Assembly: GCF_003851045.1 (NCBI RefSeq)
Contig: NZ_BFBX01000005.1
Coordinates: 1-48,872, forward strand
Direction of reading: 5' to 3'
Length of the DNA: 48,872 bases
Source of the DNA: Paenibacillus sp. 598K
GTDB taxonomy: Bacteria > Bacillota > Bacilli > Paenibacillales > Paenibacillaceae
Position 1 is the stretch's first letter. Each line of letters begins with the position of its first letter. The notes below the pieces were generated by a model, which saw only the letters and a program-made list of their open reading frames with translations, made no database searches and was not told the origin of the DNA. Both the position numbers and the translations under genes were made by a program. Below are positions 15,245-48,872 of the stretch, in pieces.

Positions 15245-17512
15245 TTAGCCCTCGCCCCCCGAGAACAGCTTGCGGTATTGGATCGGCGTATGGCCGGTCT
15301 CCTTTTTGAAGCGGCGAATGAAGCTTGGCGCATCGTGATAGCCGACGCGCTGGATGATATCCTTGAGCGGATCGCTTGTTGTGGTCAAGTCGGTGATGAC
15401 GGCGGCCATCCGCTTCTTCCAGATGTACTGAACGAAGTTGATGCCGACCGTCTCCTTGAACGAACGGCTGAAGTAGGACATCGAGATCGAATACTTGTAC
15501 GAGATCTCCTCCAGGCTGAGCGTATGGTCCATATAGTGTTCGTCGATATACGTGATGATCTGGTCCATCAGGGAGTGCGCTTCCTTCTCTTCCTTCCACT
15601 CTACCTGGTCGCACACATGGCCGACCAGCTGCAGGCAATGCCGGTACAGCTCATCCAGCGAGGCGAAGCTGTCCGGCGCGGGCAGCTTGGCTCCGACATG
15701 GGCGACGCCGGCCTCCAGCGCGGTTTTGACGATTGTGTTGATCAGGTCCAGACTCATGTAGCGGACGAACTTGACCGACAACCCGGGCTGCTGCAAATAA
15801 TCGACTGCCTCGCGCACCGTCTGCTCCGCGACCTCCCGATTGCCTAGCTTCAGACTCTGATCGAGCGTCAGCAGCACGTTTTTGGGCAGCCAGCACGCCT
15901 CGTCGCCGGAGGCCGACAGCTTGCTGAAGTACGAGATCGTGCCGCCCGGAGCGAGCCGCGTCTCGTAAGCCGAGCAAGCCTCGATGAACGACTGGTTGAG
16001 TCGATCCGGCGAGTCGTAGCAAGCGCCGACGCCGATAACGGGATGGAGCTGGTAGATGTCGTGCAGATGATCGTGCGCCGCCTGGACGATGCCGTGCAGC
16101 TGGCGCTGCTCCTCCATCCCCGGCAGCGCGTTGAAGCTGGCGATCAGCGCGATCTGATCGGGTCGGGGCAGCTCCACGCTATAGATACGCGCCTCGTACT
16201 CCGGGAATTCCACCTCGAACAGCAGCTGCTGCATGGTCTGCCATTCGATCGCAGGCTCGGGCGCAGCGTCGCCGTCCTTGCGCCCGATCAGCATGACGAA
16301 GTGGCGGCTGCGCTCGAAGCTCAGGTCGAGCGTCTGCAGCAGCTTGGCCGGCAGCCGACTGACGTTGCCGTGACGCAATAGCATGAGCAGCAGATGGTTG
16401 CGAGCGTACGGCTCCTGCAGATCGACGCGATCGCCGTACTCCTCCAGCGCCGAGCGGATGCGCTCCAGCTCATTGCCCGGTGCGGGGGCATCCGAGGTCG
16501 GCTGCTCTGCTTTGAACCGGGTATTGGCGTATTCGAGCAAGCTGAAGATCGGATGATACTGACGACGCGCGAGCAGCAGGGCAAAGACGCCCCCGAGCAC
16601 GACGACCGCCGAGAAGAGCAGGATGATGACGCTGCGGATGTGCAGCACATTGCCGAAAAACTGAGCGCTCGGCATCAGCGTCACATATTGCCAGCCGTTC
16701 TGACTCGAGCGGACCGAGACGACCGAATGATCGACGCCGCTCAGCTTCAGATTATGGATGCCGGGCGTAAGCCCCACCAGCCCTTGCAGCTCGTCGGCGG
16801 TCAGCGGCGCCTCCCGATTGCTCTTGGACGCCAGGATCTGGCCCTCCGGACTGACGATGTAGGAGGAGCCCTGGTAGTTGCCAAGGATCGTATCGATGAG
16901 CCCGGTCAGCTCGGACTCCCGGATGACGTACATCAGGGTGCCGTGCGGGGTCGGGCTGTTCGGCGTGATCGGCATCAGATAGGCCAGCATCGATTGGTCG
17001 AAGCCTGGTTTGCGGTTGAACAGGTCGGCCGGACGCATCGTCGCATGCTGCAGCCCATTGAGATCGCCTACGATCGCATCGGCGCTCCAGTTGCGGAATT
17101 TGAACGTCTCGGCGAACACCTCCAGACTGTTCATGCCCTCCGTCGAGAAGATCTTCGTATCGCCGCGATAATACAGATACATCTCCTCGATGATTGGACT
17201 GGTCGCCTTGTACAGCTTCAGCGCCTCATTGGCATCGAGGACGAAGTACGGGTCGTTCACCCGATAACGTGCCAGCCGCTCGTCATAAGCCGCATAGGAG
17301 GAGATGTTGCCGAGCTGCTTCATATGACTATTGACGATCGTCTCGGCCTGCGTCAGCTGATTCAGATGCGACTGCTCGATCTCGGCGCGCAGATTGGTCA
17401 CGGCGTTGCGATAGATGAGCAATGTTAGACAGATGAGAGGTATGAGCAAGATGAGCAGATAAGATGACATATATCGCAGGAAGAGCCTGGATTTGAAATA
17501 GTTCAGCTTCAT
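15245..17512 (-). CDS. Membrane-anchored AraC-family regulator (two TM helices flanking an extracytoplasmic sensor domain, C-terminal AraC HTH), 755 aa
   Basis: TM helices near the N-terminus and around residue 290. C-terminal ...EEISYKYSISMSYFSRSFKETVGINFVQYIWKKRMAAVITDL...IIQRVGYHDAPSFIRRFKKETGHTPIQYRK. GGGGGT RBS. Divergent from the lplBCA-like operon. Confidence 0.85.
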   Translation of the reverse strand: MKLNYFKSRLFLRYMSSYLLILLIPLICLTLLIYRNAVTNLRAEIEQSHLNQLTQAETIVNSHMKQLGNISSYAAYDERLARYRVNDPYFVLDANEALKLYKATSPIIEEMYLYYRGDTKIFSTEGMNSLEVFAETFKFRNWSADAIVGDLNGLQHATMRPADLFNRKPGFDQSMLAYLMPITPNSPTPHGTLMYVIRESELTGLIDTILGNYQGSSYIVSPEGQILASKSNREAPLTADELQGLVGLTPGIHNLKLSGVDHSVVSVRSSQNGWQYVTLMPSAQFFGNVLHIRSVIILLFSAVVVLGGVFALLLARRQYHPIFSLLEYANTRFKAEQPTSDAPAPGNELERIRSALEEYGDRVDLQEPYARNHLLLMLLRHGNVSRLPAKLLQTLDLSFERSRHFVMLIGRKDGDAAPEPAIEWQTMQQLLFEVEFPEYEARIYSVELPRPDQIALIASFNALPGMEEQRQLHGIVQAAHDHLHDIYQLHPVIGVGACYDSPDRLNQSFIEACSAYETRLAPGGTISYFSKLSASGDEACWLPKNVLLTLDQSLKLGNREVAEQTVREAVDYLQQPGLSVKFVRYMSLDLINTIVKTALEAGVAHVGAKLPAPDSFASLDELYRHCLQLVGHVCDQVEWKEEKEAHSLMDQIITYIDEHYMDHTLSLEEISYKYSISMSYFSRSFKETVGINFVQYIWKKRMAAVITDLTTTSDPLKDIIQRVGYHDAPSFIRRFKKETGHTPIQYRKLFSGGEG

Positions 17513-17949
17513 ACTTACCCCCTGGAGTTTGCAATAATTTTCAATGTATGCGTTTTAGAAGATATGTGGTTTATGACCCTAACCGTACACTATTTTCCTT
17601 GAAATGAGAAGCTTCGCCGATATGCCTTTTTTTACTTTGCCTCCTCCAGCCCCATTCTGTCAAGTCAAGCAAGCCCAGTCGCGCCAGCGATGAAGGCGCT
17701 ATCTTGAGCTGTTTTCTCCAACCATGCCAGATCCTTATACCCCCATTCCCTGGTCAAAAAAAACATAGTCCGCATGACAACCCGCCGCTGGCCGATGTCT
17801 TGTGTCCGCGAAATCGTAAGGTAATCTAACATATCCGACCATGCCAGAATCCCCGTCTTTAGCGACCTGAGCCAAAATGACATGTTTACCGTCCGCTCCC
17901 CCTTTTATAGACTGTGGGTAATCACCAAGAGGGGAAAGGAGAGGGTCCT

Positions 17950-18927
17950 ATGACAGAAGGCAGCAGCACTCCTACGTTCGACGCGTCCGTTGCGCCGACA
18001 GGACAGCAGACAGGGCGCAGGAGAGGCAGGACGCTCCATAAGATCGTCCGCAACTGGCGTTTGTACGTATTTATGGCGCCGGCATTGCTGACGGTGTTAA
18101 TTTTCAACTATTTGCCGATGTACGGGATTCAGATTGCCTTCAAAAACTACATTCCCGCCTTCGGGATGGCAGACAGTCCATGGGTCGGTCTGGATCATTT
18201 CATTCGCTTCTTCAACTCGTATTACTTTTGGGACTTGCTCTGGAACACGCTCAGCATCAGCTTGTACGGTCTTGCAGTAGGCTTCCCGCTGCCGATCCTG
18301 CTGGCGCTGGCCTTCAATGAAGTGCGCGTCGGCTTCTTCAAGAAGACGGTGCAGACCGTCACGTATGCGCCGCACTTCATCTCAACGGTCGTCATGGCGG
18401 GGATGATCATCACGTTCCTCAGCCCGTCCTCGGGGATGCTCGTCAATCTGCTGGAGGCGCTCGGCATCTCGCCGCCGAACTTCCTCACCGATCCGCGCTG
18501 GTTCAAGACGATGTACGTCTTCTCGGATGTGTGGCAGGCGACGGGCTGGGGCACGATCATCTATCTGGCAGCGCTCTCGGCGGTCGATCCCGGCTTGCAC
18601 GAGGCTGCGATCCTGGACGGAGCGTCGCGGATGCAACGGATCCGGCATATTAACATCCCGGTCATCATCCCGACGATCACGATCCTGATGATCCTCAACG
18701 TCGGCAGTCTGCTCAGCGTCGGTTACGAGAAGATCCTGCTGCTGCAAAATCCGCTCAACATGTCGTCCTCGGACGTCATCGCCACCTTCGTCTACCGGAT
18801 CGGTCTGCTGGAGGCGCAGTACAGCTACTCTACAGCGGTCGGTCTGTTCAACTCGGTCGTCAATGCGATCCTGCTGATCGTCATCAATCAGGTCGTACGG
18901 CGGACGAGCGAGAACAGTCTTTGGTAG
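17950..18927 (+). CDS. Sugar ABC transporter permease (LplB-like, MalF-type)
   Basis: Six TM segments and the EAA-like motif DGASRMQRIRHINIPVIIPT. ATG 17950 with a GGAGAGGG RBS. The track start at 17914 lacks an RBS. Confidence 0.85.
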   Translation: MTEGSSTPTFDASVAPTGQQTGRRRGRTLHKIVRNWRLYVFMAPALLTVLIFNYLPMYGIQIAFKNYIPAFGMADSPWVGLDHFIRFFNSYYFWDLLWNTLSISLYGLAVGFPLPILLALAFNEVRVGFFKKTVQTVTYAPHFISTVVMAGMIITFLSPSSGMLVNLLEALGISPPNFLTDPRWFKTMYVFSDVWQATGWGTIIYLAALSAVDPGLHEAAILDGASRMQRIRHINIPVIIPTITILMILNVGSLLSVGYEKILLLQNPLNMSSSDVIATFVYRIGLLEAQYSYSTAVGLFNSVVNAILLIVINQVVRRTSENSLW

Positions 18928-18952
18928 GACAACGAAGAAAGGAGTGAAGCCC

Positions 18953-19858
18953 ATGGTATCGGCAATCAAGGAAACAAAGAGCGACAAGGTGTTCCTGGCG
19001 TGCGTCTATGTCGTGCTCACGCTGGCGCTCGCCGTCGTCGCCTATCCGCTCATCTATATTATCAGCGCCTCGATCAGCAATCCGAACGTCGTCGCCTCCG
19101 GCGAGATGTGGCTGCTGCCCAAGGAGATCACGCTCGAAGGGTACAAGCGGGTGTTCGACGATCCGGCGATCTGGAACGGCTACCTCAATACGATCATCTA
19201 CACAGCGGTCGGCACCGCGGTTAACCTCGCCGTCACCTTGCCTGCTGCCTACGCGATGAGTCGGCGCGACATGGTCGGCCGCAATCTGTTTATGATGCTG
19301 TTTATGGTGACGATGTTCTTCAGCGGCGGCCTCGTGCCGACCTATCTGATCGTCAAGAGCCTTGGGCTCGTCAACAGCATGTGGGCGCTCATCCTGCCGG
19401 GGGCGACGTCGGTGTGGAATCTGATCGTCTGCCGCACCTTCTTCCAGTCGACGATGTCCAAGGACCTGCAGGAAGCGGCAGAGATCGACGGCTGCAGCGA
19501 CTTCCGGCTATTCTTCCAGATCGTGCTGCCGCTCTCGACGGCGCTGATCGCGGTCATGGCGCTGTTTTTCGGGGTCGGCCACTGGAACAACTACTTCTCC
19601 GCGATGATCTATCTGAGCGATCAGGCCAAGTATCCGCTGCAATTGGTGCTTCGTCAGATCCTCGTGCTGCAGCAGATGTCGGCGCAGTCGGGAGCGATCA
19701 ATGCAGAGACGGCGACCTCGCTCAACAACAAAGCCGAGGTGGCGGCGCTCGTCAAATACGCCGTGATCATCGTCTCGACGCTGCCGGTTATCGCGCTCTA
19801 TCCGTTCCTGCAGCGCTATTTTGTCCAAGGTGTCATGATCGGTTCCGTCAAGGGCTGA
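18953..19858 (+). CDS. Sugar ABC transporter permease (LplC-like, MalG-type)
   Basis: TM topology and the motif EAAEIDGCSDFRLFFQIVLPLS. ATG 18953 lies 8 nt after GAAAGGAG. Confidence 0.85.
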   Translation: MVSAIKETKSDKVFLACVYVVLTLALAVVAYPLIYIISASISNPNVVASGEMWLLPKEITLEGYKRVFDDPAIWNGYLNTIIYTAVGTAVNLAVTLPAAYAMSRRDMVGRNLFMMLFMVTMFFSGGLVPTYLIVKSLGLVNSMWALILPGATSVWNLIVCRTFFQSTMSKDLQEAAEIDGCSDFRLFFQIVLPLSTALIAVMALFFGVGHWNNYFSAMIYLSDQAKYPLQLVLRQILVLQQMSAQSGAINAETATSLNNKAEVAALVKYAVIIVSTLPVIALYPFLQRYFVQGVMIGSVKG

Positions 19859-19927
19859 TCTTGCCATAGCATGCTCGCGATGTCGCGGGACCTACAAATG
19901 GGTTATGATGAAAGGGGAGGATTGTCT

Positions 19928-21544
19928 ATGAAGAAAAGGCACAAGAAGGGGACCATCGCGGTGTCAGCCTTGATGGCGATGGCGATGCTGACAGCGGCTT
20001 GTTCATCTGACAAAGGGGGGAGCGAGACGCCTGCTGCGGGAGGCGGCGATGGAGCTGCCAGCGTCAGCCGCGAGGGCTTCCCGATCGTCGAGGAGCAGAT
20101 CACGCTCAAGATGATGGCGCCCAGCGCCGAGATGGCCAACTGGAGCACGATGCCGACGGTGCAGGCGATGGAGGAGCTGTCCAATATCAAGGTGGAGTTC
20201 GAGACGGCGCCGATCGATAGCTTCCCGACCAAAAAAAATCTGACCTTCGCCGGCGGCGAGCTGCCGGACATGCTATACGCCGCCGATCTGACGCCAGCCG
20301 AGCAGGTCAACTACGGCAGCCAAGGACTGCTGCTGCCGCTCGAGGACTTGATCGACAACTATGCGCCGAACCTGAAGGCGGTGCTCGACGCCAATCCGGA
20401 TGTCCGCAAGTCGATCACGACGACGGATGGCCATATCTACGCGCTGCCTTTCATCGATACGACCGCCGTATGGTATCGCGGCCCGATGTGGTACAACGGC
20501 AAGTTCCTGGAGGCGCTGGGCGTCAGCGAGCCCAAGACGACCGAAGAGCTGTACACATACCTGAAGCGGGTCAAGGAAGAGGATCCGAACGGCAACGGCG
20601 AGGCGGACGAGATCCCGCTCACCTCAGTCAAGCTCGACGATCTGCGCATGTTCTTCCTCGGCTTCTGGGGCATCTACAATGAGGTGTACTATGCCGACAA
20701 GGAAGGCGTCGTCCATTATACGCCGCAGGAGGAGGGCTATCGGGGCTATCTGACCTTCCTGAACAAGCTGTGGCAGGAGGAGCTGCTCGATCACGAGACG
20801 TTCTCGCAGACCGACGACATGAAGAAGGCGAAGGGCGCCAAAAACCAGATCGCGCTCTTCAGCGACTACCATCCGTACTTCACGCTCGGCGGCGAGCCGC
20901 GGACGACCGATCCGCTCATGACGCCCGTTAGCAGCGAGATCGCCGGTACGCCGGTCTACGGCAAGCACCCGGGCATCTCGTCCAACGGCAACTTCGCGAT
21001 CACGGCGACCAACAAGCATCCGGAAGCGACGATGCGCTGGATCGACTACCAATACAGCTATGAAGGCGCGACGCTCTGGACGCAAGGGCCGGAGGGGCTG
21101 ATGTGGGAGTACGAGGACGAGGCCAACAAGGTGAAGCGCTACAAGGAGGTGCCGGGCGGCGGCGACCGTGAGGAGTACCGCGCCACCTTGACGCCGAACT
21201 ACGGCATCGTCACCCCGGGCGTCAACATCCCTGAGCTGACGAACGGTCTGCGCTCCGAGCTCGACGACTGGATCCGGGAGGAGAACGAGGCGAAGCTGGT
21301 GCCGATCGCCAAGTCCCCGTTCCCGCGCGTCTATCTCGACAACGAGCGGCAGACCGAGGTGTCGGCGCTCATGTCCGATCTCGATACGTATGTGAAGCAG
21401 ATGGAAGCCCGCTTCGTCACCGGCGCGGAGCCGCTGGCCAACTGGGATGCGTACGTCGCTCAATTGAAAAAGATGGGCAGCGACCGAATTGTCGAGATTT
21501 ACCAAGAGGCTTACGACCAGTGGGATAGCGAGAACGCCAGCTAA
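19928..21544 (+). CDS. Extracellular solute-binding lipoprotein (LplA-like) for a sugar or oligosaccharide ABC transporter
   Basis: Lipoprotein signal MKKRHKKGTIAVSALMAMAMLTAAC with lipobox LTAAC. About 540 aa, SBP size class. AAGGGGAGG RBS. Confidence 0.85.
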   Translation: MKKRHKKGTIAVSALMAMAMLTAACSSDKGGSETPAAGGGDGAASVSREGFPIVEEQITLKMMAPSAEMANWSTMPTVQAMEELSNIKVEFETAPIDSFPTKKNLTFAGGELPDMLYAADLTPAEQVNYGSQGLLLPLEDLIDNYAPNLKAVLDANPDVRKSITTTDGHIYALPFIDTTAVWYRGPMWYNGKFLEALGVSEPKTTEELYTYLKRVKEEDPNGNGEADEIPLTSVKLDDLRMFFLGFWGIYNEVYYADKEGVVHYTPQEEGYRGYLTFLNKLWQEELLDHETFSQTDDMKKAKGAKNQIALFSDYHPYFTLGGEPRTTDPLMTPVSSEIAGTPVYGKHPGISSNGNFAITATNKHPEATMRWIDYQYSYEGATLWTQGPEGLMWEYEDEANKVKRYKEVPGGGDREEYRATLTPNYGIVTPGVNIPELTNGLRSELDDWIREENEAKLVPIAKSPFPRVYLDNERQTEVSALMSDLDTYVKQMEARFVTGAEPLANWDAYVAQLKKMGSDRIVEIYQEAYDQWDSENAS

Positions 21545-38154: not shown

Positions 38155-39132
38155 TCAGCTCAGCTTCGACCAGTCTCCGGCTTGCGGCAGATAGCGTTCC
38201 ATGATGCGGCGATGCTCTGCCAGCACAGCGGCGAGAGTCCCCGCGCTCAGGCTTCCTGCACCCGGGATCGAGGTGCGGAACCGCAGCTCTCCGTCCTCGG
38301 CGTCGAGCTCGAATGCGCCGCCGGGTCCGTCATAATTCAGATTCATCAGCTGCACGGCGACCGCTGCATGCGCGCTCGTCGGCACGAGCTCGGGGAAGAC
38401 GGAGTAGACGCTGCACCAGTCGCTCTCGCTTATATGGATCAGCATCCGCCAGCTCCCGATCTCGGTACGGATATCGAGCCGCACGACGTCCGAGGCGAAC
38501 ACCTCGTAGCGCAGGTTCAACTGTTGCAGCAGCCGCTCTAGCAGCATAGTCTGCGCCCCGCTGTAGCTGGCGACTCCCGATGTCTCGTCTCTTGCATCGT
38601 CCGGCTTCCGATGACCTGTGTGATCCTCAGGTTGCGCCGCGGCTTTCTCCGACTGGAGCCAGGCCGTCTGCAAGCCATGGCGGACGACGCCTTCGCTAGC
38701 CAAGGCGTCCGGCAATGGGATCTGCTGCATCAGCTCCAGCGCCAGCCAGCACTCCGACTGGCGGAGGAAGGTGTGCTCCGTCGCTCCCGGGAGCAGGGCC
38801 GCGAGGATGGTCTGGCTGTCTCCGCCGCTGCTGGCGATGCGCCGGGCATAGCTCTGGCGTAGCCTGGCGCGGATGACGACAGGCTCATCCAGATCGAAGC
38901 TCGGCTCGGCATTCACCAGATCGGTGAACAGGTGGAACCGCTCGTCGGCGATCCATGCTTCGACCAGGTGTCCCTCAGCCTCAAAGGTAATCTCGCACCG
39001 GACGGCGGTTCTGTGATCAGCCGCCTCCCAGACTAGCCGGGTCAGCTCTACCGGCAATGCTTCGCCCTCGAGCGACAAGAAGCTTAAGGGATAGCGGGTT
39101 CGGATTGCATTAGCGTCTTCGCGTGCGGGCAT
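38155..39132 (-). CDS. Hypothetical protein (~325 aa), possibly a tandem YbjN-like/chaperone-like fold (very tentative)
   Basis: ATG 39132 follows GGAGAGGAGAGG. The track start at 39138 is a TTG two codons upstream. No diagnostic motif. Confidence 0.5.
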   Translation of the reverse strand: MPAREDANAIRTRYPLSFLSLEGEALPVELTRLVWEAADHRTAVRCEITFEAEGHLVEAWIADERFHLFTDLVNAEPSFDLDEPVVIRARLRQSYARRIASSGGDSQTILAALLPGATEHTFLRQSECWLALELMQQIPLPDALASEGVVRHGLQTAWLQSEKAAAQPEDHTGHRKPDDARDETSGVASYSGAQTMLLERLLQQLNLRYEVFASDVVRLDIRTEIGSWRMLIHISESDWCSVYSVFPELVPTSAHAAVAVQLMNLNYDGPGGAFELDAEDGELRFRTSIPGAGSLSAGTLAAVLAEHRRIMERYLPQAGDWSKLS

Positions 39133-39459
39133 TCGCAACCTCTCCTCTCCGATGTTCTCTCATTGCAAGCCACTGTTGGCTTTCGATCACCCCAACATCA
39201 GCCTGATCCGCCTATTGGCGTATTATACCTGTTTCGTACCTGTTTCGTACCATACCGTTTGGGCGCTTCTCCGTAATGCAGTGCGGGTGCATCGACATTA
39301 GGCGGACTTTGCACATGTGGAGCGTGTGCGGTTGGTAGGGCGTATTGTTACTAGTAGTTGTCCTGGACTGCGCAAGATGTCAGCATCCGCTCAAAGCATT
39401 CGATGTGTAGAGAGTCAAGTCGGCGCCAGTCGCTGTTGTAGCGGAGGGACAGAAACGTA

Positions 39460-39660: not shown

Positions 39661-39741
39661 TGTAGCGGAAACGATGCGTCGAATCGCCAGAGTAGGGGAG
39701 GAGCCGCAGCGCTGGACCCACCGCTTCCGTACCCCCATCGC

Positions 39742-40040
39742 CCGCGCACCCGTCAGCCATGCGACGGCTCTCGTCAGCGTGGCGCGGCGCCCCGCGAAGC
39801 CGCAGTTCGCACCCACGGTGCCAGAGCGCCCCCTAGGCGTCCGCGCACCCGTCAGCCGTGCGACGGCTCTCGTCAGCGTGGCGCAGCGCCCCGCGAAGCC
39901 GCAGTCCGCGCCCACGGTGCCAGAGCGCCCCCATCGTCCGGCGCACCCGTCAGCCGTGCGACGGCTCTCGTCAGCATGGCGCAGCGCCCCGCGGAGCCGT
40001 AGACCGCGCCCACAATGCCAGAGCGCCCCCTGTGCGTCCG
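39742..40040. repeat. 3 tandem copies of a ~99-bp GC-rich unit
   Basis: CGCGCACCCGTCAGCCrTGCGACGGCTCTCGTCAGCGTGGCGCrGCGCCCCGCGAAGCCGCAGTyCGCrCCCACGGTGCCAGAGCGCCCCC... with periods of 99, 99 and 98 nt. The ORFs 39620..40057(+) and 39610..39915(-) are artefacts. Confidence 0.85.
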
Positions 40041-40107: not shown

Positions 40108-42948
40108 CTAGGTCTTCTCGATGCCGACGAGCCCGCCCTTGAGGCCGTAAGCGCCGTTTTCCTTGCTGAGGGCCAGCTTGCCGAGGCGCTTCGATTTCTC
40201 GATGGCGAGCGTCATGATGCCCGCTTCGATCTCAAGCCCCTTCGTCTGGCCGATCTCCAGCGACACCTCCCATTTGCTGAACTTGCCAGCGTCGTCCTTC
40301 TCTGCGCTAATATTGAGGGAGAAGTCCATCGTGCTGCTCAACGCAATCTTGTTGGACAGCTCGTCTGCGTCCAGCTCCTCGCTCGTGAACCAGCTGCGCA
40401 TCTGCTCCTGGATCTCGTCCTGATCCTGCAACTGCGAGGCGAAGCTCTCGCCCCAGGCGTCGAACTCCGGCACCAGGAAGAGCGTATCCGTCCCGATATC
40501 CGCAGCGGTGCCGGCATAGCTGGCGCCTTTTTTGTCCTTCATCGTATTCTGGACCGCGCCGACAGAGTTTTTCACAAGGCCGGAGATCGGCGCGACCAGC
40601 TTGGCCAGCGTCTTCGCCCATTCCGTCGTTTCCTCGCCGTACTGGAAGGGGAGGCCGGCCTCGACGGCGATCTCGACCTCCTTGAGCGTGCCGTCCATCC
40701 AGGCGAGCTCCAGCGCGATCCCGAAGTCGACGCCGGTGCCGGCGATCTCCAGCGACAGCGCGCTCTCGAACTCGAGGGTGCGGCGTTTGGAGCCGGAGAG
40801 CAAGGCGGTCGCCTTCTCGGCCAGCTTGGCCAGATCGGTCGAGTCGCCGAATGACCCGGCTTTATCCGTCACAGCGTCCTTGTCGTAGCGATTGAGCCGC
40901 TTGTGGCCGAGCGCCGCCTCCGCTTCGAACACACCCGCATTAACCTCGGCGGCGACTTGGCTGGTCAAGCCGACGTCGACGTGATTGTCCTCGTTGCTCA
41001 TCTCCTGTTGCTCGATCATCGCCGCCCACAGCTCGGCCTCCTCGAGCTTGCTCTTACCGGACTTGCCGCCATGGCCCCACAGCGAGTCGGCCGCTCCTGC
41101 GGAGAACTTGCGCATCTGTCGATACATCCCGTACGACATCAGGTTGACGGCGCTGTGCGAGTTGCTGCCCTGCGCTGCGAGGAAAAATCCGACCGACGCG
41201 TTCACGTCGAGACCAAAGCCGCCGAAGCCGCCGCCGATGCTCACTTGCGATTCCAGCGACAGCTCGCCTTCCTCCTTTTCCGCCTCCGCGCCGAGCGAGA
41301 TCAGGAAGTACGCGCCCGCCTGGATCGGAATCTTCAGCTCGAACTCGAGCGAGGCCGAATCGCCAGCCGCAGGCACGGCCAGATCGATGATTTTGGCGAC
41401 CTTGGCGAAGCCTTTGTTGAGCGAGTCTTCCTCGATCACATATTTGATCGCCTTGCCGGCGATATCGTCGGCCGTCACCTGCTGGCCGACCTGGGTGATC
41501 AGCTCGGAGCGCTTGATCAGATCCGGTCCGGCGCCCGTTTCCTTGTCGCCCTTCGTCACCTTGCGCGCTTCCGATTCGGCTTTTGGCATGATGATTTTGT
41601 AGAGCTCGGCCGCCTTGGCCTGCGCCCCGGTTTTGGAGGCTTTGGCGATCTTGTCTCCGGCGTCGGCATGACTTCTCGCTACGCTGTAGGCTGACGTCTG
41701 CGCCGCTTCCTTAAGCTGCTTGGTCGTCGGCTCCTGCGGCAGCAGCTGCGTGAGGATGCTGTCCGCGTGCGTGCCCATCACTTTGTCGACCGAGCTCTTG
41801 GAGGTGCTATGCGATTCAGCCTTGGCCAGCATGCCATAGTATTGCTTTCCTACGTTGCTCTTGCCGCTGGTGAGGCTGTTGCTGTCCAGTTGATTGTCGA
41901 TGTCGGTCCGGGCCTGCGTGCGTCCGGCTTCCTTGAGACTGTCGCGGAAGGCGTTGAGCTCGTCCGACCTGCGGAAGGCGCTGCGCCCGACGCCAAGCTT
42001 GAGCAGCACGACCTGACGGATCGGGTCGGCCAGACTGGCTTTATAGACCTGATCGATGACCGTGGCGTCGAACAGACTGTTCTCCAGTCGGCTTCGCTTG
42101 CCCGCTTCATCTGTTCCCAGCGTCTTGATATCGACATGGACGGAGAGGGCGCCGAGATCGTTTTGCATATCCTGCAGGATCGATTGCTTGCCGGCAGTCA
42201 GCGTCGCCTCGCCGATCTGCCGGGCTTCGCCGACCGTTTGCTTTTCGGCGCTTTTATCCGCTTCCTTGAGCTGCTTGCTCAGCTCGACGCCGGGCTTTGG
42301 AGCGACCATGGCGAAGCCTTCCTTGGCTTTGGTTTGCAGCTTTTCCTTTTGCGTATCGCCGAGCCTGGGAGTTGCGGTGCTCCCCGCATATTTTTTGAGC
42401 GTTTCGCCGAGTACATTTTGCGAGTCGACGAGTTGCTCCGCATACGACTTGGCATCCTTTTTTTGCTGGTCAGTGACGCTGCCTGTATTCTCCACTTGCT
42501 GTTGGACGGCACTAATGGCCGCTTGTCGCAAGCTGTTGCGTAACGCCGCCGTCTGCTTGTCCTTGGCTAGGAAAGTCGTCAGCTCGGTGGCTGTCGTACT
42601 TTGGAGCCCGGTGAAATACTTGTCGGCGAGCCGATTGGCGGTCGCATCCTTCTGCAGGTCAAGCTCGCCTTGCCGGATCTCCTCCTTGGACGGACCGCTC
42701 GGAGGCGGCGATCCGCTTCCGCTGGACTGCTGGCTGCGCGCGAGGTTGCGATTGCCGAGCGAGCGCTGCAGCGTGTTGCGCAGATCAAGAGGGGTGGGAG
42801 ATTGCGTGCCCTGAACGGGCGGCGATGTCGGGGTCTGCGTTGCAGTCTGCTGGGGAGCTTGCGTTTGGGTCTGCGTTTGCGCGGCAGTCTGTCGGTCTTG
42901 ATCGGAGGGTTTCTTTTTGCCGGTAAAGAGGGACGGGAAGGGAGCCAT
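40108..42948 (-). CDS. Large hypothetical protein (946 aa). It has a low-complexity Q/T/P-rich N-terminus, the leader motif TLQRSLGNRNLAR, and a Lys/Ala/Glu-rich body with a Gly-rich segment (GGGFGGFGLDVNASVGFFLAAQG).
   Basis: ATG 42948 (MAPFPSLFTGKKKP). No signal peptide or TM helix. It shares the leader motif with the divergent gene at 43180. Candidate injection-system cargo (inference). Confidence 0.6.
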   Translation of the reverse strand: MAPFPSLFTGKKKPSDQDRQTAAQTQTQTQAPQQTATQTPTSPPVQGTQSPTPLDLRNTLQRSLGNRNLARSQQSSGSGSPPPSGPSKEEIRQGELDLQKDATANRLADKYFTGLQSTTATELTTFLAKDKQTAALRNSLRQAAISAVQQQVENTGSVTDQQKKDAKSYAEQLVDSQNVLGETLKKYAGSTATPRLGDTQKEKLQTKAKEGFAMVAPKPGVELSKQLKEADKSAEKQTVGEARQIGEATLTAGKQSILQDMQNDLGALSVHVDIKTLGTDEAGKRSRLENSLFDATVIDQVYKASLADPIRQVVLLKLGVGRSAFRRSDELNAFRDSLKEAGRTQARTDIDNQLDSNSLTSGKSNVGKQYYGMLAKAESHSTSKSSVDKVMGTHADSILTQLLPQEPTTKQLKEAAQTSAYSVARSHADAGDKIAKASKTGAQAKAAELYKIIMPKAESEARKVTKGDKETGAGPDLIKRSELITQVGQQVTADDIAGKAIKYVIEEDSLNKGFAKVAKIIDLAVPAAGDSASLEFELKIPIQAGAYFLISLGAEAEKEEGELSLESQVSIGGGFGGFGLDVNASVGFFLAAQGSNSHSAVNLMSYGMYRQMRKFSAGAADSLWGHGGKSGKSKLEEAELWAAMIEQQEMSNEDNHVDVGLTSQVAAEVNAGVFEAEAALGHKRLNRYDKDAVTDKAGSFGDSTDLAKLAEKATALLSGSKRRTLEFESALSLEIAGTGVDFGIALELAWMDGTLKEVEIAVEAGLPFQYGEETTEWAKTLAKLVAPISGLVKNSVGAVQNTMKDKKGASYAGTAADIGTDTLFLVPEFDAWGESFASQLQDQDEIQEQMRSWFTSEELDADELSNKIALSSTMDFSLNISAEKDDAGKFSKWEVSLEIGQTKGLEIEAGIMTLAIEKSKRLGKLALSKENGAYGLKGGLVGIEKT

Positions 42949-43179
42949 GCACTGTCCTCCTTAAAGAGAGTATCGAATGTTAGAATCTGATCTGATTATA
43001 CATGACGCTTTCTTCCCTGTGTGACATTTTTTTGCGTGTGTCGCAATCGTTCGACATTTTTTTTATACATTTTGCAGGTAAAAGGGAGGAAGGTGTAGAA
43101 ATAAACAAAATTCCAGTATTTGAATCGGAACAGAGTGAAAGCAGCGGCGGGTCGAGGGCTGCAACGGGGAGGGCGAGGA
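42949..43179. promoter_or_regulatory. AT-rich divergent promoter region with the direct repeat GACATTTTTTT x2
   Basis: The 230-bp gap between divergent genes has the lowest GC content in the window. Repeats at 43021 and 43053. Confidence 0.4.
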
Positions 43180-44595
43180 ATGGCACGTAAATATGGCAAG
43201 CTGCCTCCGCTTGACTCGCATCCCGAGAAGCTGGACGAGGAGAAGACGCGACGTCCGGCGGCCAACCGCGAAGCGCCGCCGCTGGAGGAAGGGTCTCAGA
43301 CGCTGCAGCGATCGGTCGGCAACTCGGCGATCCGTCGGCTCGCCCGGACGGTAGCTGTCTCCGGCTCCGGCCCGCTGCTGCCCCGCGAGCCCAAGTATGC
43401 GCGATATGCCCGCTGGCTGCTGGCGCATGTAGAGGCGGACGGACGCCAGGAGCTGCTGCGCCGCTTTTACGCGCTGACGATGCCGCAGAAGCGGGCCGCC
43501 CTGGTCAATACAGTCGGCCGTCCGGCGCTGCAGAGCGAGCAGTACACGCTGGATCTGGACGACTTCGACCGCCAGGTAACCGCTGTCAAGCATGTACAGC
43601 TGCGACATGGCGAGTCGGAGAAGGAAGCGGACGAAAGCGAGCGGGGAGCGTTCCAGACGAAGGCAAGCCTCACCCCGGCCGGTCTGCTGCACCCGTACCG
43701 CGAACTCCTGTTGTGGCTCAACTACAAGGCCGTCAAGCAGGGCCAGGCCGCGCTGATGCTGCGGTTTGGCCGGCTGTCCGTCCCCCGCAAGCAGCTCGCG
43801 TTGCATCGGATGATGCGATTCCGCAGTATCACTGTCGATGCCTTCACCCGTCAGATGACGCTGCCGGTACTCGAGCGCGAGTGGGTCGACTGGGAGACGG
43901 TACGCGCGTCGATGGCGATGGCGGAGCGCGTGAAGGCCGAGGGCGGCCGGAGCGAGGCTGAAACTGGCGGAGAGCGCACAGACGGCGGAGATACAGCAGC
44001 CGACGAGCTGCTGGAGGGACTAGACGCCGGAGGACTGCCGACTGCGCTGCTATCGCTACTGGGGCTTGCGGACTCGGACGCCGGGACTGTAGGGATGGAC
44101 GATCGCAAGGGCGCTCGCGCCTCGGAGGAGCCTGCGACGGGTCAGGCTCAGGAGCGCCAGCCGTCGCCCGGAGCATCCAGGTCGGAGGCGATCAAGCCAG
44201 ACGCAGGCGGGGTGGCGCTGCTCGCCGGCAGGACCGCGGACTACTGGACGAGGCTGCTGCTAGGCGGCAAGGGCGCGCAGCCGCTCGCCGCCATCGCCGA
44301 GCGCTGTCGCAGCGGCGGCTTGGACAGGGAGGCAGTCGTCGACCGCTATCTCAACCTCGCGACCGCTCCTCCGGCAGGGCGGCGCAAGCAGCGCGACAAG
44401 CGGTTGCAGGCGTCGGGCTTCCGGACGGCGGCGGATTGCTTCGCCTTCCTCATCAGGGGCTTCGCCGCCTTCCTGATCCGGGGAGCGAAGGAGGGCAAGG
44501 ACAAGAGCTGCCGTCAGGCGCTCAAGCAATGGGACATCCCGGATGGCGCCGACGAGACGAAGGCGCAGGCGGCGATACTTGCAAGGCTCGGCTAG
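43180..44595 (+). CDS. Hypothetical protein (471 aa) with the N-terminal leader motif TLQRSVGNSAIRRLA. The C-terminal domain is Arg/Ala-rich and matches no known family.
   Basis: ATG 43180 lies 6 nt after GGGGAGGG. The motif sits at residues 41-55. The track start at GTG 43120 lacks an RBS. Confidence 0.55.
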   Translation: MARKYGKLPPLDSHPEKLDEEKTRRPAANREAPPLEEGSQTLQRSVGNSAIRRLARTVAVSGSGPLLPREPKYARYARWLLAHVEADGRQELLRRFYALTMPQKRAALVNTVGRPALQSEQYTLDLDDFDRQVTAVKHVQLRHGESEKEADESERGAFQTKASLTPAGLLHPYRELLLWLNYKAVKQGQAALMLRFGRLSVPRKQLALHRMMRFRSITVDAFTRQMTLPVLEREWVDWETVRASMAMAERVKAEGGRSEAETGGERTDGGDTAADELLEGLDAGGLPTALLSLLGLADSDAGTVGMDDRKGARASEEPATGQAQERQPSPGASRSEAIKPDAGGVALLAGRTADYWTRLLLGGKGAQPLAAIAERCRSGGLDREAVVDRYLNLATAPPAGRRKQRDKRLQASGFRTAADCFAFLIRGFAAFLIRGAKEGKDKSCRQALKQWDIPDGADETKAQAAILARLG

Positions 44596-44609: not shown

Positions 44610-47600
44610 GTGAATCTAGAGGCAGGATGGAGCGGCAGCGTGGCAGCACAATTACAGGCTTTTTTTAATCTCAGATACGAAGACCGCCGCAAAATCCTCG
44701 TCATGGGCCTTGTGTTCCTGCTGGCAGGCATCTCGGAGATGGTCAACTATACCGCTTATATGGGCATCTTCAACAGCAGGGTAGGCACGCAGTATTTGCC
44801 GATCATGTACATGATCGAGGCGCTTTTGCTGCCGCTCGAGGGCTGGGCGCTCGCCTATCTGTCGCAGCGCATCCCCAAGAAGCGCCTGATGATTACGCTC
44901 TACCTGTCCTTCGTCTCGATCGGTCTGATCGGCGGAGCGCTGCTGCTCCTCTTCCGCTGGACCGGCGCGGAGTGGACGTTCTTCTATTTCTTGCTGTTCC
45001 TGGGCTCCAGCTTTGTCGTCCGGCAGCAGACGCTGCTCATGTGGGCCACCGCCTTTGATCTGTGCCCGACCCAGCAGGCGAAGCGGGTCATGCCCGTCTT
45101 CGTGCTGCTGGCGATCATCGGCGGCATCGTCGCCGGCGTGCTCTCCCGGTTGCTGGCGCCGCTGCTCGGCGCAGAGCTGCTGTACCTGCTCGGGGCGATT
45201 ATCCTGTTGCTCGGCTTCCCTAACTTCCGCAGCGCGCTTCGCCAGTATTTGCTGCCCTCGGATATCGCGGACGAGGAGGGGGGAGAGGAGCTGGGCGCGG
45301 TCGGCCGTTCGATGAAGCTGATGCTGAGATCGCCCTTCCTGCTGGTCGTGCTCGGAGTGATGACCTTGATGCCGGCTGTGTATTATGTGATGGAATATCA
45401 ATACTTTACAGCCGCTCAGGCCGTGTTCCTCACGGAGGAGGAGTTGACAGCGTTCTATGGGCTGATGGTCATTGTGCTGTTTTGCGGCGCATTCGTCCTG
45501 CAGCTGTTCTCCGCGAGGCTGATGGCCTGGCTGGGCGCCAGCAACATGGTGCTCGGCATGACGGTCGTATTTCTCCTCTGCTTTGCGCTGGCGGCCCCGC
45601 TGGTGGGCTCATCCGGAGCGCTGTTCGCCGTATCGTTTGGCTATTGCCTCACCTATCTCCTTCTTTATTATTTCGCAGAACCAAGCTTTCAGCTGTTTTT
45701 CAAAATGTATCCCCAGCAGCAGCGGGACGGGCTGCGATTCACCGCCCAGAGCGTGTCGGCCTCGGCCGGCATCCTGCTCGGCTCCGGCGTCTCCCTGCTG
45801 CACTCCCGATTGGGCTGGAGTCTACCGGCCCAGGCGACGGTCGGACTGGCGATGGCAGCGCTGCTCGTCGCGCTAGCCTGGTCAATCCGCCGACTGTATA
45901 TGCAGCAGCTGTTGCATTACCTGCACGCGGCCGGAGGTTCGCTCAAGAACCGGTATCAGGACTTCGTCGAGTCGCTGCGCAGTCAGGATGCGAAGCGGGC
46001 GCTGATCGCCCGACTGGAGCAATCTGAGCCGCCGATCCAACGGATCACGCTGGAATGGCTGGCCGAAGCGCCGGACGCGGCCGCCTCAGAGGCGCTGCTG
46101 CGGTTCGCCGGGCGCCATCAGGGCGACGTATTGGCCATGGCGCTGACAGCGATCCATGCCGACGGCTGGCGCGAGATGGCGGCAGGCCGCGTCCGCGAGT
46201 GGGTGCAGGATGCGAGCGAGACGGTGCGGGCAGTCGCAGCGCGTCAGGCGATCGCCTCCGGGCGTCCGGACCGCGCGGAGTGGCTGCAGCTCGCATATCG
46301 CGATCCGGCGCTGCCGGTGCGACTGGAGGCGCTGCGCGTCTGGGAGAGCCAGGAGGAGGTGGAGCGGGAGCTGCGCGAGCTGCTGCAGCAAGGCGGCGAA
46401 GCGGCGCTCGCAGCTTGCCGGATGATCGGCGAGCGACGGCTCGCCTCGATGCTCTACGATGTCATGCTATGCATGCTGGAGCCTGCGATGGCGCTCAAGT
46501 ACGAGGCAGTGCGGACGATCGGCCGGATCGGCGACAGCGACATCGTCACCAGTCTGATGGACATGCTCGTCGGCGCGGATCGCGAGATGAGCCGGATCAT
46601 CGAGGAGGCGCTGCAGGAGGCGGGTGAGGTAACGGGCCTGACGCGCTTCCTTGACTCGCCCAATGAAGACATCTGGCGCGCCGCCGTCTTGACGGTCAAT
46701 GCGATCGGCGCCGATCGGGAGATCGCCGAGCTGGTCGTCCCGGCCTGTATCCGCAAGCTGATGGAGCTGTGCGCGGGCAACCGTATACTCGAGCTGATCG
46801 AGGAGGCGGGCCAGCCGGCGTGGACGGAGCTGGCGCGGCAGCGGCGCAACGAGGTGAACCGGATGCTGCTCGACACGATCTGGACCGTCATGGTCCGCTA
46901 CGGCGACGAGCGCTCGATCCCGCAGCTGCGGCGCGCGATCGAGGAGGGCGCCGAGGAGGCGCGCGACCACGGGCTGGAGATCCTCTCCGAGGGGATGGAT
47001 CACCCCCGCCTGGCGGGTGCGCTGCTCCTCTACTATCAGAGCATTCAGCACGGCGCCGCCAAGCGGACGGAGACGCACGCAGCGATCGAGAGCAGTCCCG
47101 AGCTTGCGGCGACGATGCCGACAGATCCATGGCTGCAGGCGATTCTCGTCAAGGCGAGCGCCAGGGAAGGAGAGGCGGAGTTGGCACAGACCTGGGAATA
47201 TTTGAGCGCGCTCGACAAAATCGTATTTCTGAAGCAAGTCCCGTTGTTCCACGAAATCTCGGTCGAGGAGCTCGGGCGCATCGCAAGCATCGCCGAGGAG
47301 CAGTCGTACGCGGAGGGCGAGTACCTGCTGCGTCAGGGCGAGCGCAGCAGCTCGCTCGTCATGATCGTCGACGGCGAGGTCGAGATGAGCGGGGTGGGCG
47401 ATGCCGGCGTAGAGGGCAGCCTGGCGAGACTGGGGCCGAAGATGACGTTTGGCGAGGCGGGACTGTTCGATGACCAGCCCTCGGCGGTCTCGGCGCAGGC
47501 GGTCCTGGGCGAGGTGCGGGTGCTGGCGATCGCGGGCGAGGAAGCGGCCAAGCTGGTGCGGCTCTATCCCGATATCGGCGTTGGTCTGCTCCGCTCCGTC

Positions 47601-47648
47601 AGCCAGCGCCTGCGCAGTCTGGAGCGGATGCTGCTGAAGCTGAGCTAG
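44610..47648 (+). CDS. Fusion protein: TLC-family (ATP/ADP-translocase-like, Npt) 12-TM transporter, HEAT-repeat region and C-terminal cyclic-nucleotide-binding (CAP-type) domain
   Basis: N-terminus FFNLRYEDRRKILVMGLVFLLAGISEMVNYTAYMG plus WATAFDLCPTQQAKRVMPVF match the TLC motifs FNYSILRD and FANEIT..EAKRFYP. Residues ~560-900 are HEAT-like (EALLRFAGRHQGDVLAMALTAIHADG...). The cNMP-binding domain reads FLKQVPLFHEISVEELGRIASIAEEQSYAEGEYLLRQGERSSSLVMIVDGEVEM...FGEAGLFDDQP. The start is uncertain: GTG 44610 or 44640, or ATG 44703. Confidence 0.75.
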   Translation: MNLEAGWSGSVAAQLQAFFNLRYEDRRKILVMGLVFLLAGISEMVNYTAYMGIFNSRVGTQYLPIMYMIEALLLPLEGWALAYLSQRIPKKRLMITLYLSFVSIGLIGGALLLLFRWTGAEWTFFYFLLFLGSSFVVRQQTLLMWATAFDLCPTQQAKRVMPVFVLLAIIGGIVAGVLSRLLAPLLGAELLYLLGAIILLLGFPNFRSALRQYLLPSDIADEEGGEELGAVGRSMKLMLRSPFLLVVLGVMTLMPAVYYVMEYQYFTAAQAVFLTEEELTAFYGLMVIVLFCGAFVLQLFSARLMAWLGASNMVLGMTVVFLLCFALAAPLVGSSGALFAVSFGYCLTYLLLYYFAEPSFQLFFKMYPQQQRDGLRFTAQSVSASAGILLGSGVSLLHSRLGWSLPAQATVGLAMAALLVALAWSIRRLYMQQLLHYLHAAGGSLKNRYQDFVESLRSQDAKRALIARLEQSEPPIQRITLEWLAEAPDAAASEALLRFAGRHQGDVLAMALTAIHADGWREMAAGRVREWVQDASETVRAVAARQAIASGRPDRAEWLQLAYRDPALPVRLEALRVWESQEEVERELRELLQQGGEAALAACRMIGERRLASMLYDVMLCMLEPAMALKYEAVRTIGRIGDSDIVTSLMDMLVGADREMSRIIEEALQEAGEVTGLTRFLDSPNEDIWRAAVLTVNAIGADREIAELVVPACIRKLMELCAGNRILELIEEAGQPAWTELARQRRNEVNRMLLDTIWTVMVRYGDERSIPQLRRAIEEGAEEARDHGLEILSEGMDHPRLAGALLLYYQSIQHGAAKRTETHAAIESSPELAATMPTDPWLQAILVKASAREGEAELAQTWEYLSALDKIVFLKQVPLFHEISVEELGRIASIAEEQSYAEGEYLLRQGERSSSLVMIVDGEVEMSGVGDAGVEGSLARLGPKMTFGEAGLFDDQPSAVSAQAVLGEVRVLAIAGEEAAKLVRLYPDIGVGLLRSVSQRLRSLERMLLKLS

Positions 47649-47922
47649 AGCTTGTGCAGCCTGTGGGCGCAGGAACAGGCGGGACAAAAAAATATGTGAC
47701 ATAGCTATACTCACGAATGAGGAGTATGCCGATAACCGTAGTGTACTCTCTCTCACGGGATCTCTCTCGCTTCAAAATGTCGAATGATGTCCCGATTTTT
47801 ACTGTTGAGGGGCCTTTGTCCTACGACTGTCCTGCCCAAAGAACGATCCCGTGACCGTAGGCATAGTTTTGAGGGCAGCCTGATGTATCGGGATCATCTG
47901 AATTCGGGAGAGTGAACTTGGA

Positions 47923-48872
47923 ATGACTTATACGCAAGAAGCTTCTCCTTATCAGAATGGGGCGGAGTATCTGTTCGATGAGTGGGTCCGGCTCGATGTC
48001 GTGCTGGAGATCGAGATGCAGCGGATGATGCAGGGCGCGCAAGAGCTGGATCAAGATAGCGGCGCATTCCGCGGCATGTATCTGTCCGATGCCGAGGCCA
48101 AAGCGCTCCTCGACGAGGACGAGCCGTACCTGCAGCTGACAACGGAGCAGGCCTATCTGCTGGACCAGCTCGAGGCGCGCATCCGGCATAATCTGGCTGC
48201 GACCTCCGGGGAGCGGCTGCCGCTGCTGCGTCTGCAGCAGGCGCTCGGGCTGAACGAGCAGGAGATACGGCTGCTGCTGGCAGCGCTTGCGCCCCATGCC
48301 AATCGCAAATACATACGATTATACGGATATCTGCAAGACGACATGTCCAGCCAGCATCTGTCGCTCGATCTGGCGCTGCGCATCACCAGCCGCAGTCCGG
48401 TAGAGCGAAGGGAACTGCTGAAGCGCTGGACGGATGACCACGGCTCGCTCCGCTCGCTGTTTGCGGATGGATCGGCAGCACATGCCCGCAAGGACGTATC
48501 GATGCTGACGGCGCCGCTCACGCTGAGGCCGCGCGTCGTCCACCTCCTGCTGGACCTGCCGTGGCGAGCGCGGGACACGCTCCGCGGACTGGCTCACTAC
48601 ACGCTGGACAGTCATCGCCAGCTGGAGCAGCCGCTCATCCAGACCGAGCTGCGCCGACGTCTGTCGGACTACGCGCGCGAGCGGGCAGCGTACCCCGTGC
48701 ACTGGAACCTGCACGGTCCCACAGGCAGCGGCAAGACGTTCCAGGCCAGACATCTGTGCGCCGACCTCGGCCTGGGGCTGCTGGAATGGGAGCTCGGTCA
48801 GGCTGCGCAGGAGCCGGAGGCGCTGCGCGGCGAGCTGGCGCAGCTGCTGCTCGAGGCGCGGCTGCAGGAGGC
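47923..48872 (+). CDS. AAA+ ATPase, 5' part (runs off the window). The N-terminal domain resembles the Afp15/Pvc15-type ATPase of extracellular contractile injection systems.
   Basis: GMYLSDAEAKALLDEDEPY and LGLNEQEIRLLLAALAPHANRKYIRLYGYLQDDMSSQHLSLDLALRI match the conserved N-domain pattern recalled for CIS ATPases (GL.ISDAEVD.LL and LLLaLAPELD.RYERLYGYLqDDvTRR.pTVgLALEL). Walker A reads NLHGPTGSGKT. GGGAGAG RBS. Confidence 0.65.
   Translation, partial: MTYTQEASPYQNGAEYLFDEWVRLDVVLEIEMQRMMQGAQELDQDSGAFRGMYLSDAEAKALLDEDEPYLQLTTEQAYLLDQLEARIRHNLAATSGERLPLLRLQQALGLNEQEIRLLLAALAPHANRKYIRLYGYLQDDMSSQHLSLDLALRITSRSPVERRELLKRWTDDHGSLRSLFADGSAAHARKDVSMLTAPLTLRPRVVHLLLDLPWRARDTLRGLAHYTLDSHRQLEQPLIQTELRRRLSDYARERAAYPVHWNLHGPTGSGKTFQARHLCADLGLGLLEWELGQAAQEPEALRGELAQLLLEARLQE

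Follow-up and report, generated by a model that had tools for sequence, protein, structure and literature searches.

What brings two otherwise unrelated proteins with the same short N-terminal sequence to the edge of a contractile injection system (CIS) gene cluster in a Firmicute? The question is raised by a 48,872-nucleotide stretch of DNA from Paenibacillus sp. 598K (NZ_BFBX01000005.1, positions 1 to 48,872; the whole stretch is referred to here as the window), which carries two divergently transcribed genes, A (40108..42948, minus strand, 946 amino acids, 8 close homologues) and B (43180..44595, plus strand, 471 amino acids). Both products bear the leader motif described below, and B is the first gene on the strand of the CIS cluster. 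We conclude, with moderate confidence, that A and B serve the adjoining CIS as accessory proteins, either cargo or effectors. The proteins are 100% identical to PA598K_00497 and PA598K_00498, respectively, of Paenibacillus sp. 598K. Gene B begins at the ATG at 43180, following a GGAGGG ribosome-binding site; the list of open reading frames (ORFs) gives a TTG at 43120. No sigma-70 consensus promoter was found in the 231-bp region between the divergent genes (42949..43179).

The leader occupies residues 59–71 of A (TLQRSLGNRNLAR; 42736..42774, minus strand) and residues 41–53 of B (TLQRSVGNSAIRR; 43300..43338, plus strand), and the two copies have TLQRS[LV]GN in common. A six-frame translation of the 48.9-kb window contains just two matches to LQ[RQH]xxGN, which are these two sites. 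When A was compared with B by BLASTP, the alignment was confined to the N-terminal motif stretch (E 4e-4) and the bodies proved unrelated. A preliminary description of this DNA had proposed a common leader on unrelated bodies, and both motifs are where it placed them. Its account of composition was roughly right: A contains 12% Ala, 9.5% Leu, 9% Ser, 8.6% Gly, 8.5% Lys, and 7.5% Glu and includes the stretch GGGFGGFG, while B contains 14% Ala, 12% Leu, and 11% Arg. The Pro/Gln/Thr-rich sequence that it saw ahead of both motifs is present in A (Thr/Gln/Pro-rich) but not in B, where the preceding residues are rich in Pro, Glu, Lys, and Arg.

The motif is conserved among the homologues of both proteins. 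Among the A homologues (n = 8, 39–100% identity), LQ[RQ]xxGN is the sole conserved element of variable, low-complexity N-termini, with Gln61 and Gly65 invariant across all 8. The close homologues of B (n = 6) retain TLQRxxGNxAxRR, and two more distant ones at 32% identity, found by context, retain MQQTYGNQAVERMV and LQRSLGNAAMRRIAR. AlphaFold2 confidence (predicted local distance difference test, pLDDT) is 26–31 over residues 1–80 of A, below 50 for residues 1–88 of B, and below 30 across the B motif; thus, the motif sits in predicted disorder in both proteins, and in both it lies within the first ∼100 residues. In A, the Thr/Gln/Pro-rich segment predicted to be disordered spans residues 1–86 (42691..42948, minus strand). 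The consensus of the leader is h-L-Q-R-x-x-G-N-x-A-V-x-R-L-h, a short linear motif in a disordered, hydrophilic N-terminal region; we found no paper that names or describes it. A leader hidden Markov model (HMM) trained independently, on 16 DUF4157-linked leaders alone, ranked B first in the window (E 0.036) and A fourth (E 0.44). Because the match of A is weak when taken alone, its assignment rests on relatives that have a canonical leader at the same place.

DUF4157 (PF13699) is an established marker of extracellular CIS (eCIS) and lies N-terminal to toxins (Geller et al. 2021, PMC8213781). The preliminary description had placed a leader of the present kind ahead of this domain, and such leaders do precede PF13699, by ∼60–140 residues, in ORFs of viral and metagenomic origin (L023, L069, L094, L100, L119, and others). 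Viral contigs gave 73 matches to a DNA pattern for LQRxxGNxA, two of which are N-terminal leaders (LQRSIGNQATARLL and LQRGLGNQAVSRLL) with PF13699 and its HExxH ∼135–155 residues later; the remaining matches look like chance. When metagenomes were scanned for the PF13699 core, 80 loci were obtained, in which ∼20 distinct ORFs carry hLxLQRxxGNQAVQRLh, typically 40–85 residues into the stop-to-stop frame, with the core 35–100 residues further on. The C-termini of leader-DUF4157 ORFs match an AHH nuclease, an anthrax lethal factor-like domain, DUF922, and OmpA-like domains. Five metagenomic ORFs appeared to have a leader without a core, and Pfam showed PF13699 in four of them, the regular expression used for the core having been too strict. 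The fifth, a 359-residue frame at L081 1425–2501 (the same gene as L082 1297–2373), has the canonical leader LHLQRTIGNQAVQRLLQA and matches nothing in Pfam; the next gene downstream encodes a leader with DUF4157, and the frame places a leader without DUF4157 outside the Firmicutes lineage. The motif spans Paenibacillaceae, an Acidimicrobiales genome, and unassigned metagenomic contigs.

Proteins A and B carry the leader without this domain. Neither matches PF13699 or contains HExxH, just as the preliminary description had stated, and neither has any match in Pfam (E≤0.01), NCBIfam, or PHROG. Sequence searches of the PDB with A, B, and a leader-DUF4157 protein returned no related solved structure. 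A local HMM for the DUF4157 core found none in the window or in the sampled parts of the related loci L001–L007.

The genomic setting links the leader to CIS genes. An ORF beginning at 47923, 3.3 kb past B on the plus strand, combines the WHD variant domain PF22977 (E 1.8e-28) with the start of an AAA domain; it is the 5′ part (47923..48872, 316 codons) of a CIS AAA+ ATPase gene of the Afp15/Pvc15/Alg15 type that runs off the window. This is the injection-system-type ATPase that had been noted 3.3 kb downstream. The encoded part is 66% identical to a 722-residue ATPase of L004/L007, which in turn is 83% identical to that of L003, and full-length homologues likewise combine PF22977 with AAA. 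As the window ends inside this gene, the cluster beyond it is known for strain 598K through syntenic relatives only. In L003, L004/L007, L162, and L164, genes for Pvc16_N, a sheath, two gp19-type tubes, and CIS_tube/LysM come after the ATPase gene, and these relatives also have a tail-assembly-chaperone-like gene and a very long disordered protein at the tape-measure position. Thus, a contractile-injection cluster starts on the strand of B, as the preliminary description had suspected, and both A and B lie in or next to it.

The same association appears in the metagenomes. A homologue of the window-type ATPase is present in 32 of the 80 DUF4157-anchored loci, and wherever positions were checked it immediately precedes the DUF4157 gene; between nine and 13 of the longer loci contain sheath, tube, and Pvc16_N genes as well. 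Right after the ATPase homologue of L094, and likewise of L100, comes an unbroken row of four leader-bearing genes. The ATPases closest to that of the window (L123, L094, and L100; 380–402 bits, full-length alignment) adjoin GN-type leaders, of which that in L123 has the variant form LERYLGNSYL, whereas the other 29 (≤301 bits, aligned only from residue ∼209 onward) adjoin Cys-type N-termini and no GN-type leader. Such a match between leader type and ATPase subfamily would be expected if the ATPase recognizes the leader; equally, it could reflect shared ancestry.

Most other DUF4157 proteins of the metagenome sample have a Cys-rich N-terminus, LLQRKCACGN..GEC followed by LQRKLAIGASNDPLE. The block LLQRKCACGNHTxAGGEC...(K)LQRKLAIGASNDPLExEAD recurs in L081–L160 (e.g., L084 150–1871 and L105 7478–9451) and looks like a zinc-ribbon-like element joined to a second LQR-containing block. 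It was never found alongside the window-type ATPase subfamily. Because most of the sampled DUF4157 proteins carry the Cys-rich LQRKCxCG form, the GN-type leader is one variant of an “LQR” theme.

Protein A is not the orphan that the preliminary description had implied in proposing a new, DUF4157-less cargo family, although much of its interpretation is supported. A profile search returned 338 cluster representatives (50% identity) at E≤1e-3, of which 268 reach E≤1e-10, with a conserved body corresponding to residues ∼295–946 of A, which places A in this unnamed family; the named members include those of Paenibacillus species and of an Acidimicrobiales genome. An N-terminal DUF4157 core, called by a local HMM that Pfam confirmed in 7 of 7 cases tested, is present in 63 of 139 full-length relatives (∼45%). 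The tested relatives match PF13699 and nothing else in Pfam, and the body is without a Pfam model. Thus, A is a DUF4157-less member of a large DUF4157-associated family. A GN leader lies within the first 200 residues of 39 of the 139, and in 30 it occurs without a core; by regular expression, both are present in 9, two of which are spurious in that the match falls at or after the core. Among the other 46, at least 11 have leaders degenerated to hQxxxGN. Across the family, the association between leader and core is negative (odds ratio 0.26, p 0.001, not corrected for phylogeny), which suggests that the leader is independent of DUF4157. Neither an A-type body nor a YbjN-like ORF (see below) was found in the 80 DUF4157-anchored metagenome loci.

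The AlphaFold2 model of A (mean pLDDT 73.8) divides the protein behind the leader into two parts. Residues 88–524 (41377..42687, minus strand) form an all-helical domain, with pLDDT mostly 80–95, in which the conserved body begins at residue ∼295. Residues 530–945 (40114..41361, minus strand) comprise ∼12–13 long amphipathic beta strands with helical inserts. Hydrophobic and polar residues alternate in 11 of the 13 strands, no hydrophobic helix is predicted, and the region is predicted to be a 12-stranded membrane-type beta-barrel. Known 12-stranded outer-membrane barrels (PcoB, the KdgM/NanC porins, and type Va autotransporter translocators) share 6–13% identity with A in structural alignments; A is unrelated to them at the sequence level, with no match in Pfam or NCBIfam, and differs from them in having no signal peptide and in its large helical inserts between the strands. 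The genus Paenibacillus is normally single-membraned.

The gene that follows A (38155..39138, minus strand) encodes a 327-residue YbjN-like protein that resembles type III secretion chaperones. It matches PF10722 at 33.1 bits (cutoff 22) and CesT weakly, and it is a candidate chaperone of A. A YbjN-like gene is next after A in 10 of 10 distinct contexts (L005 is not among them), so that the two genes are strictly co-inherited, as in chaperone-effector pairs. The likeness is to class I type III chaperones (CesT/SycE fold) and the YbjN family; unlike the former, the protein is about twice the typical size and occurs here with no type III system, and its role as a chaperone is suggested by analogy. 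We found no paper connecting YbjN with CIS. The ∼970-bp gap between A and the YbjN-like gene contains a 99-bp tandem repeat (39732–40030, 3.1 copies, 91% match); it looks like a strain-specific insertion because the spacing is just ∼20–35 bp in relatives.

Protein B belongs to a narrow, lineage-specific family. A profile search of 5.8 billion proteins found 7 clusters, to which two homologues found by context are added, and B is confined to this Paenibacillaceae CIS lineage. Its AlphaFold2 model is poor (pLDDT 46), with some confidence only in a C-terminal helical part (residues 340–471).

The distribution of the two genes resembles that of accessories. The divergent A/B arrangement recurs in L003, L005, L164, L165, and L166, while L162 has the cluster and A without B, and L004/L007 have the cluster and B without A. 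Because each gene is missing from some clusters and A also occurs elsewhere, we regard A and B as variable accessories at the edge of the cluster, not as core parts of it.

By comparison with known systems, A and B would belong to the CIS-associated proteins that have an N-terminal loading region. Loading in AlgoCIS depends on a disordered region ahead of DUF4157, while DUF4157 itself is dispensable; the disordered region plus DUF4157 sends foreign proteins (BlaM and Cre) into the particle when fused to them, and loading requires the AAA+ protein Alg15 (bioRxiv 10.64898/2026.05.27.728243). The AlgoCIS cargos Cgo1 and Cgo2 and the PVC cargos Pdp1 and Pnf, the latter with N-terminal packaging signals, resemble A and B in joining a disordered N-terminal region to a variable payload in a cluster with an AAA+ ATPase; as with A and B, two unrelated cargos of one system are similar in the N-terminal region only. 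The AlgoCIS authors regard the loading sequence as not conserved between systems (bioRxiv 10.64898/2026.05.27.728243), and Danov et al. detected no specific conserved sequence for the loading signal. Here lies the difference: the AlgoCIS and PVC papers describe no motif conserved between systems, whereas the motif of A and B spans several bacterial lineages. PF13699 proteins share with A and B the hLQRxxGNxAVxRLh leader in a disordered N-terminus and the linkage to a CIS AAA+ ATPase, sheath, and tube, and the body of A is the C-terminal part of many of them; A and B differ in having neither the PF13699 domain nor HExxH.

A further parallel is found in Streptomyces lividans, where the gene for an effector that lacks DUF4157 lies upstream of the cluster in divergent orientation and a DUF4157 partner binds spike proteins (PMC13277306). 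Like A, Sle1/Sle2 represent an effector without DUF4157, divergent, just upstream of the CIS structural genes, and with a dedicated partner. In S. lividans, a small DUF4157 protein is the partner and forms the bridge to the spike (PMC13277306), whereas the partner of A is YbjN-like and has no DUF4157; Sle1 is tape-measure-like, whereas the model of A suggests a helical domain and a barrel.

From these comparisons we infer how A and B might work as cargo. With the DUF4157 module absent, the leader would be joined straight to the payload. While the CIS is being assembled, the leader region would recruit A and B to it, most likely by way of the WHD-AAA+ ATPase of the cluster, which would act as the receptor and feed them into the particle. 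Once delivered, the payload of A could insert into a membrane as a pore or channel; in the producer, the YbjN-like protein would keep A soluble and competent for loading. B would be a second leader-tagged accessory protein, specific to the Paenibacillaceae CIS lineage. A bolder version, which we put forward tentatively and hold to be doubtful as a whole, is that one subfamily of CIS AAA+ ATPases reads the GN-type leader whether or not DUF4157 is present, so that the leader would be the first sequence-defined cargo address tag to cross phyla, and that A would be the first CIS cargo to be a self-inserting 12-stranded beta-barrel channel, with a type III chaperone-like escort, from a bacterium without an outer membrane.

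Several observations weigh against reading A and B as cargo. The motif is short, and the match of A to the independent leader profile is not significant alone (E 0.44). The co-occurrence of ATPase subfamily and leader type takes no account of shared ancestry, and the Pfam WHD occurs in both groups of ATPases. The barrel prediction for A is built from 8 sequences. The A/YbjN pair occurs without a CIS gene within 10 kb in L001/L002, L161, and L163. Effectors in most eCIS loci sit at the 3′ end, and B nearly always heads the cluster. In Ammoniphilus resinae, the B homologue (L006 5221–6795), 22% identical to B, has lost a recognizable motif and has a Gly/Ala-rich hydrophobic center resembling membrane helices; given this combination, an anchoring or firing accessory fits that homologue better than cargo does. 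Finally, the CIS of Streptomyces, also Gram-positive, act inside the producer cell (PMC12237407), and “injection into a target” may therefore not apply here.

These points lead to the strongest rival, to which we assign a rather low probability: that A and/or B, and B especially, are membrane-associated accessories through which the producer positions, triggers, or releases a CIS in its own cytoplasm, the part that CisA plays in Streptomyces. The leader would then dock on the baseplate or spike, and the barrel of A would permeabilize the membrane of the producer. The position of B at the head of the cluster in most loci of the lineage and the helix-like hydrophobic segments of its Ammoniphilus homologue favor such a role. 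So do the binding of S. lividans DUF4157 proteins to spike-complex proteins (PMC13277306), the predicted membrane-type barrel of A, and the Streptomyces CIS, which are cytoplasmic and need a membrane protein for firing (PMC12237407). However, no transmembrane helix or signal peptide is predicted in Paenibacillus A or B, L162 has an otherwise complete cluster without B, and A is often unlinked from the cluster. In other phyla, moreover, the same leader stands before the toxin- or enzyme-like C-termini listed above (AHH nuclease, anthrax lethal factor-like, and DUF922), with several OmpA-like ones, which is a cargo-like arrangement.

It is improbable that the motif is a functionless remnant of descent or of domain shuffling among DUF4157-family genes, with A and its YbjN-like partner forming an independent toxin-chaperone pair that uses another export route. 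The pair does stand away from CIS genes in three contexts, and the motif has decayed in P0007, P0008, and the Ammoniphilus homologue of B. Against this, the motif is the sole conserved element of fast-evolving disordered N-termini in two unrelated families, down to 32–40% identity, which argues for selection on it, and no alternative export signal or secretion system was found in the window.

A marginally poorer prospect still is that the motif is no loading signal but the place where the DUF4157 metallopeptidase-like domain, in cis or in trans, recognizes or processes the protein. The motif is mostly found on the same polypeptide as an HExxH-containing eCIS_core, at a fairly constant distance from it. 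Yet there is no DUF4157 core in the window or in the sampled parts of the seven related loci, the negative association of leader and core in the A-body family (uncorrected for phylogeny) runs the other way, and DUF4157 is dispensable for AlgoCIS loading (bioRxiv 10.64898/2026.05.27.728243). The last alternative, raised in the preliminary description, that the motif belongs to a secretion signal of the type VII (LXG/WXG) or Sec/Tat kind, is effectively refuted: its N-terminal position and the Firmicute host speak for it and nothing further does, whereas A and B have no LXG or WXG100 match in Pfam, no type VII component (EssC-type or other) was found among the window ORFs scanned against Pfam, no Sec-type signal peptide is predicted for either hydrophilic N-terminus, both of which are without a hydrophobic core, and the relatives of the motif are Pfam-confirmed eCIS_core proteins adjoining CIS ATPases.

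Between B and the ATPase gene, the window encodes a protein with an MFS-like membrane domain, HEAT repeats, and a C-terminal cyclic-nucleotide-binding domain (44640..47648, plus strand). Its start is inferred to be the GTG at 44640 (1002 residues, as in relatives) as opposed to the TTG at 44436 in the ORF list. The gene lies between B and the ATPase gene in most relatives, and its product is probably a regulator or sensor of the CIS cluster. In Ammoniphilus, a CHASE2 adenylate/guanylate cyclase and a Crp-type regulator are encoded a few kilobases upstream, which hints at cyclic-nucleotide control of the cluster. In most relatives, a partner-switching module (HATPase_c_2 kinase-like protein, STAS, and GAF-SpoIIE phosphatase) lies between this gene and the ATPase gene (L003 3107–5304, L004 14498–16699, L006 12955–15153, and L162 4588–6744); it is absent at 47649–47922 of the window, and L164 has neither the module nor the MFS-HEAT gene. 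A 187-residue gene after the Ammoniphilus B homologue (L006 6808–7371), directly upstream of the ATPase gene, has no detectable family and shows no similarity to the YbjN-like protein. In L007, a 1406-residue protein rich in Arg, Ala, Pro, and Ser and without a family match (16590–20810) occupies the tape-measure position, between the second tube gene and CIS_tube/LysM, and a small ORF between the two tube genes (15441–15836) matches PHROG 508, a tail assembly chaperone. The remainder of the window consists of sugar-utilization and regulatory genes.

As CIS-associated proteins with putative N-terminal loading regions, A and B are of a known kind, and three of their features are absent from the literature that we found: a leader defined at the sequence level that spans several bacterial lineages independently of DUF4157, a predicted membrane-type barrel payload in a normally single-membrane genus, and the obligate YbjN-like partner of A. 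How a CIS chooses its cargo is an open question in the field, to which the motif brings a hypothesis that can be tested by mutation. The leader also provides a search handle for cargo that does not carry the DUF4157 marker and might serve as a tag with which to load foreign proteins into the CIS of Gram-positive bacteria. The predicted barrel and the type III chaperone-like partner point to an effector mechanism not described in the CIS literature found, and the model of A is an initial structural proposal for its family, which comprises over 300 sequence clusters and lacks a Pfam model.

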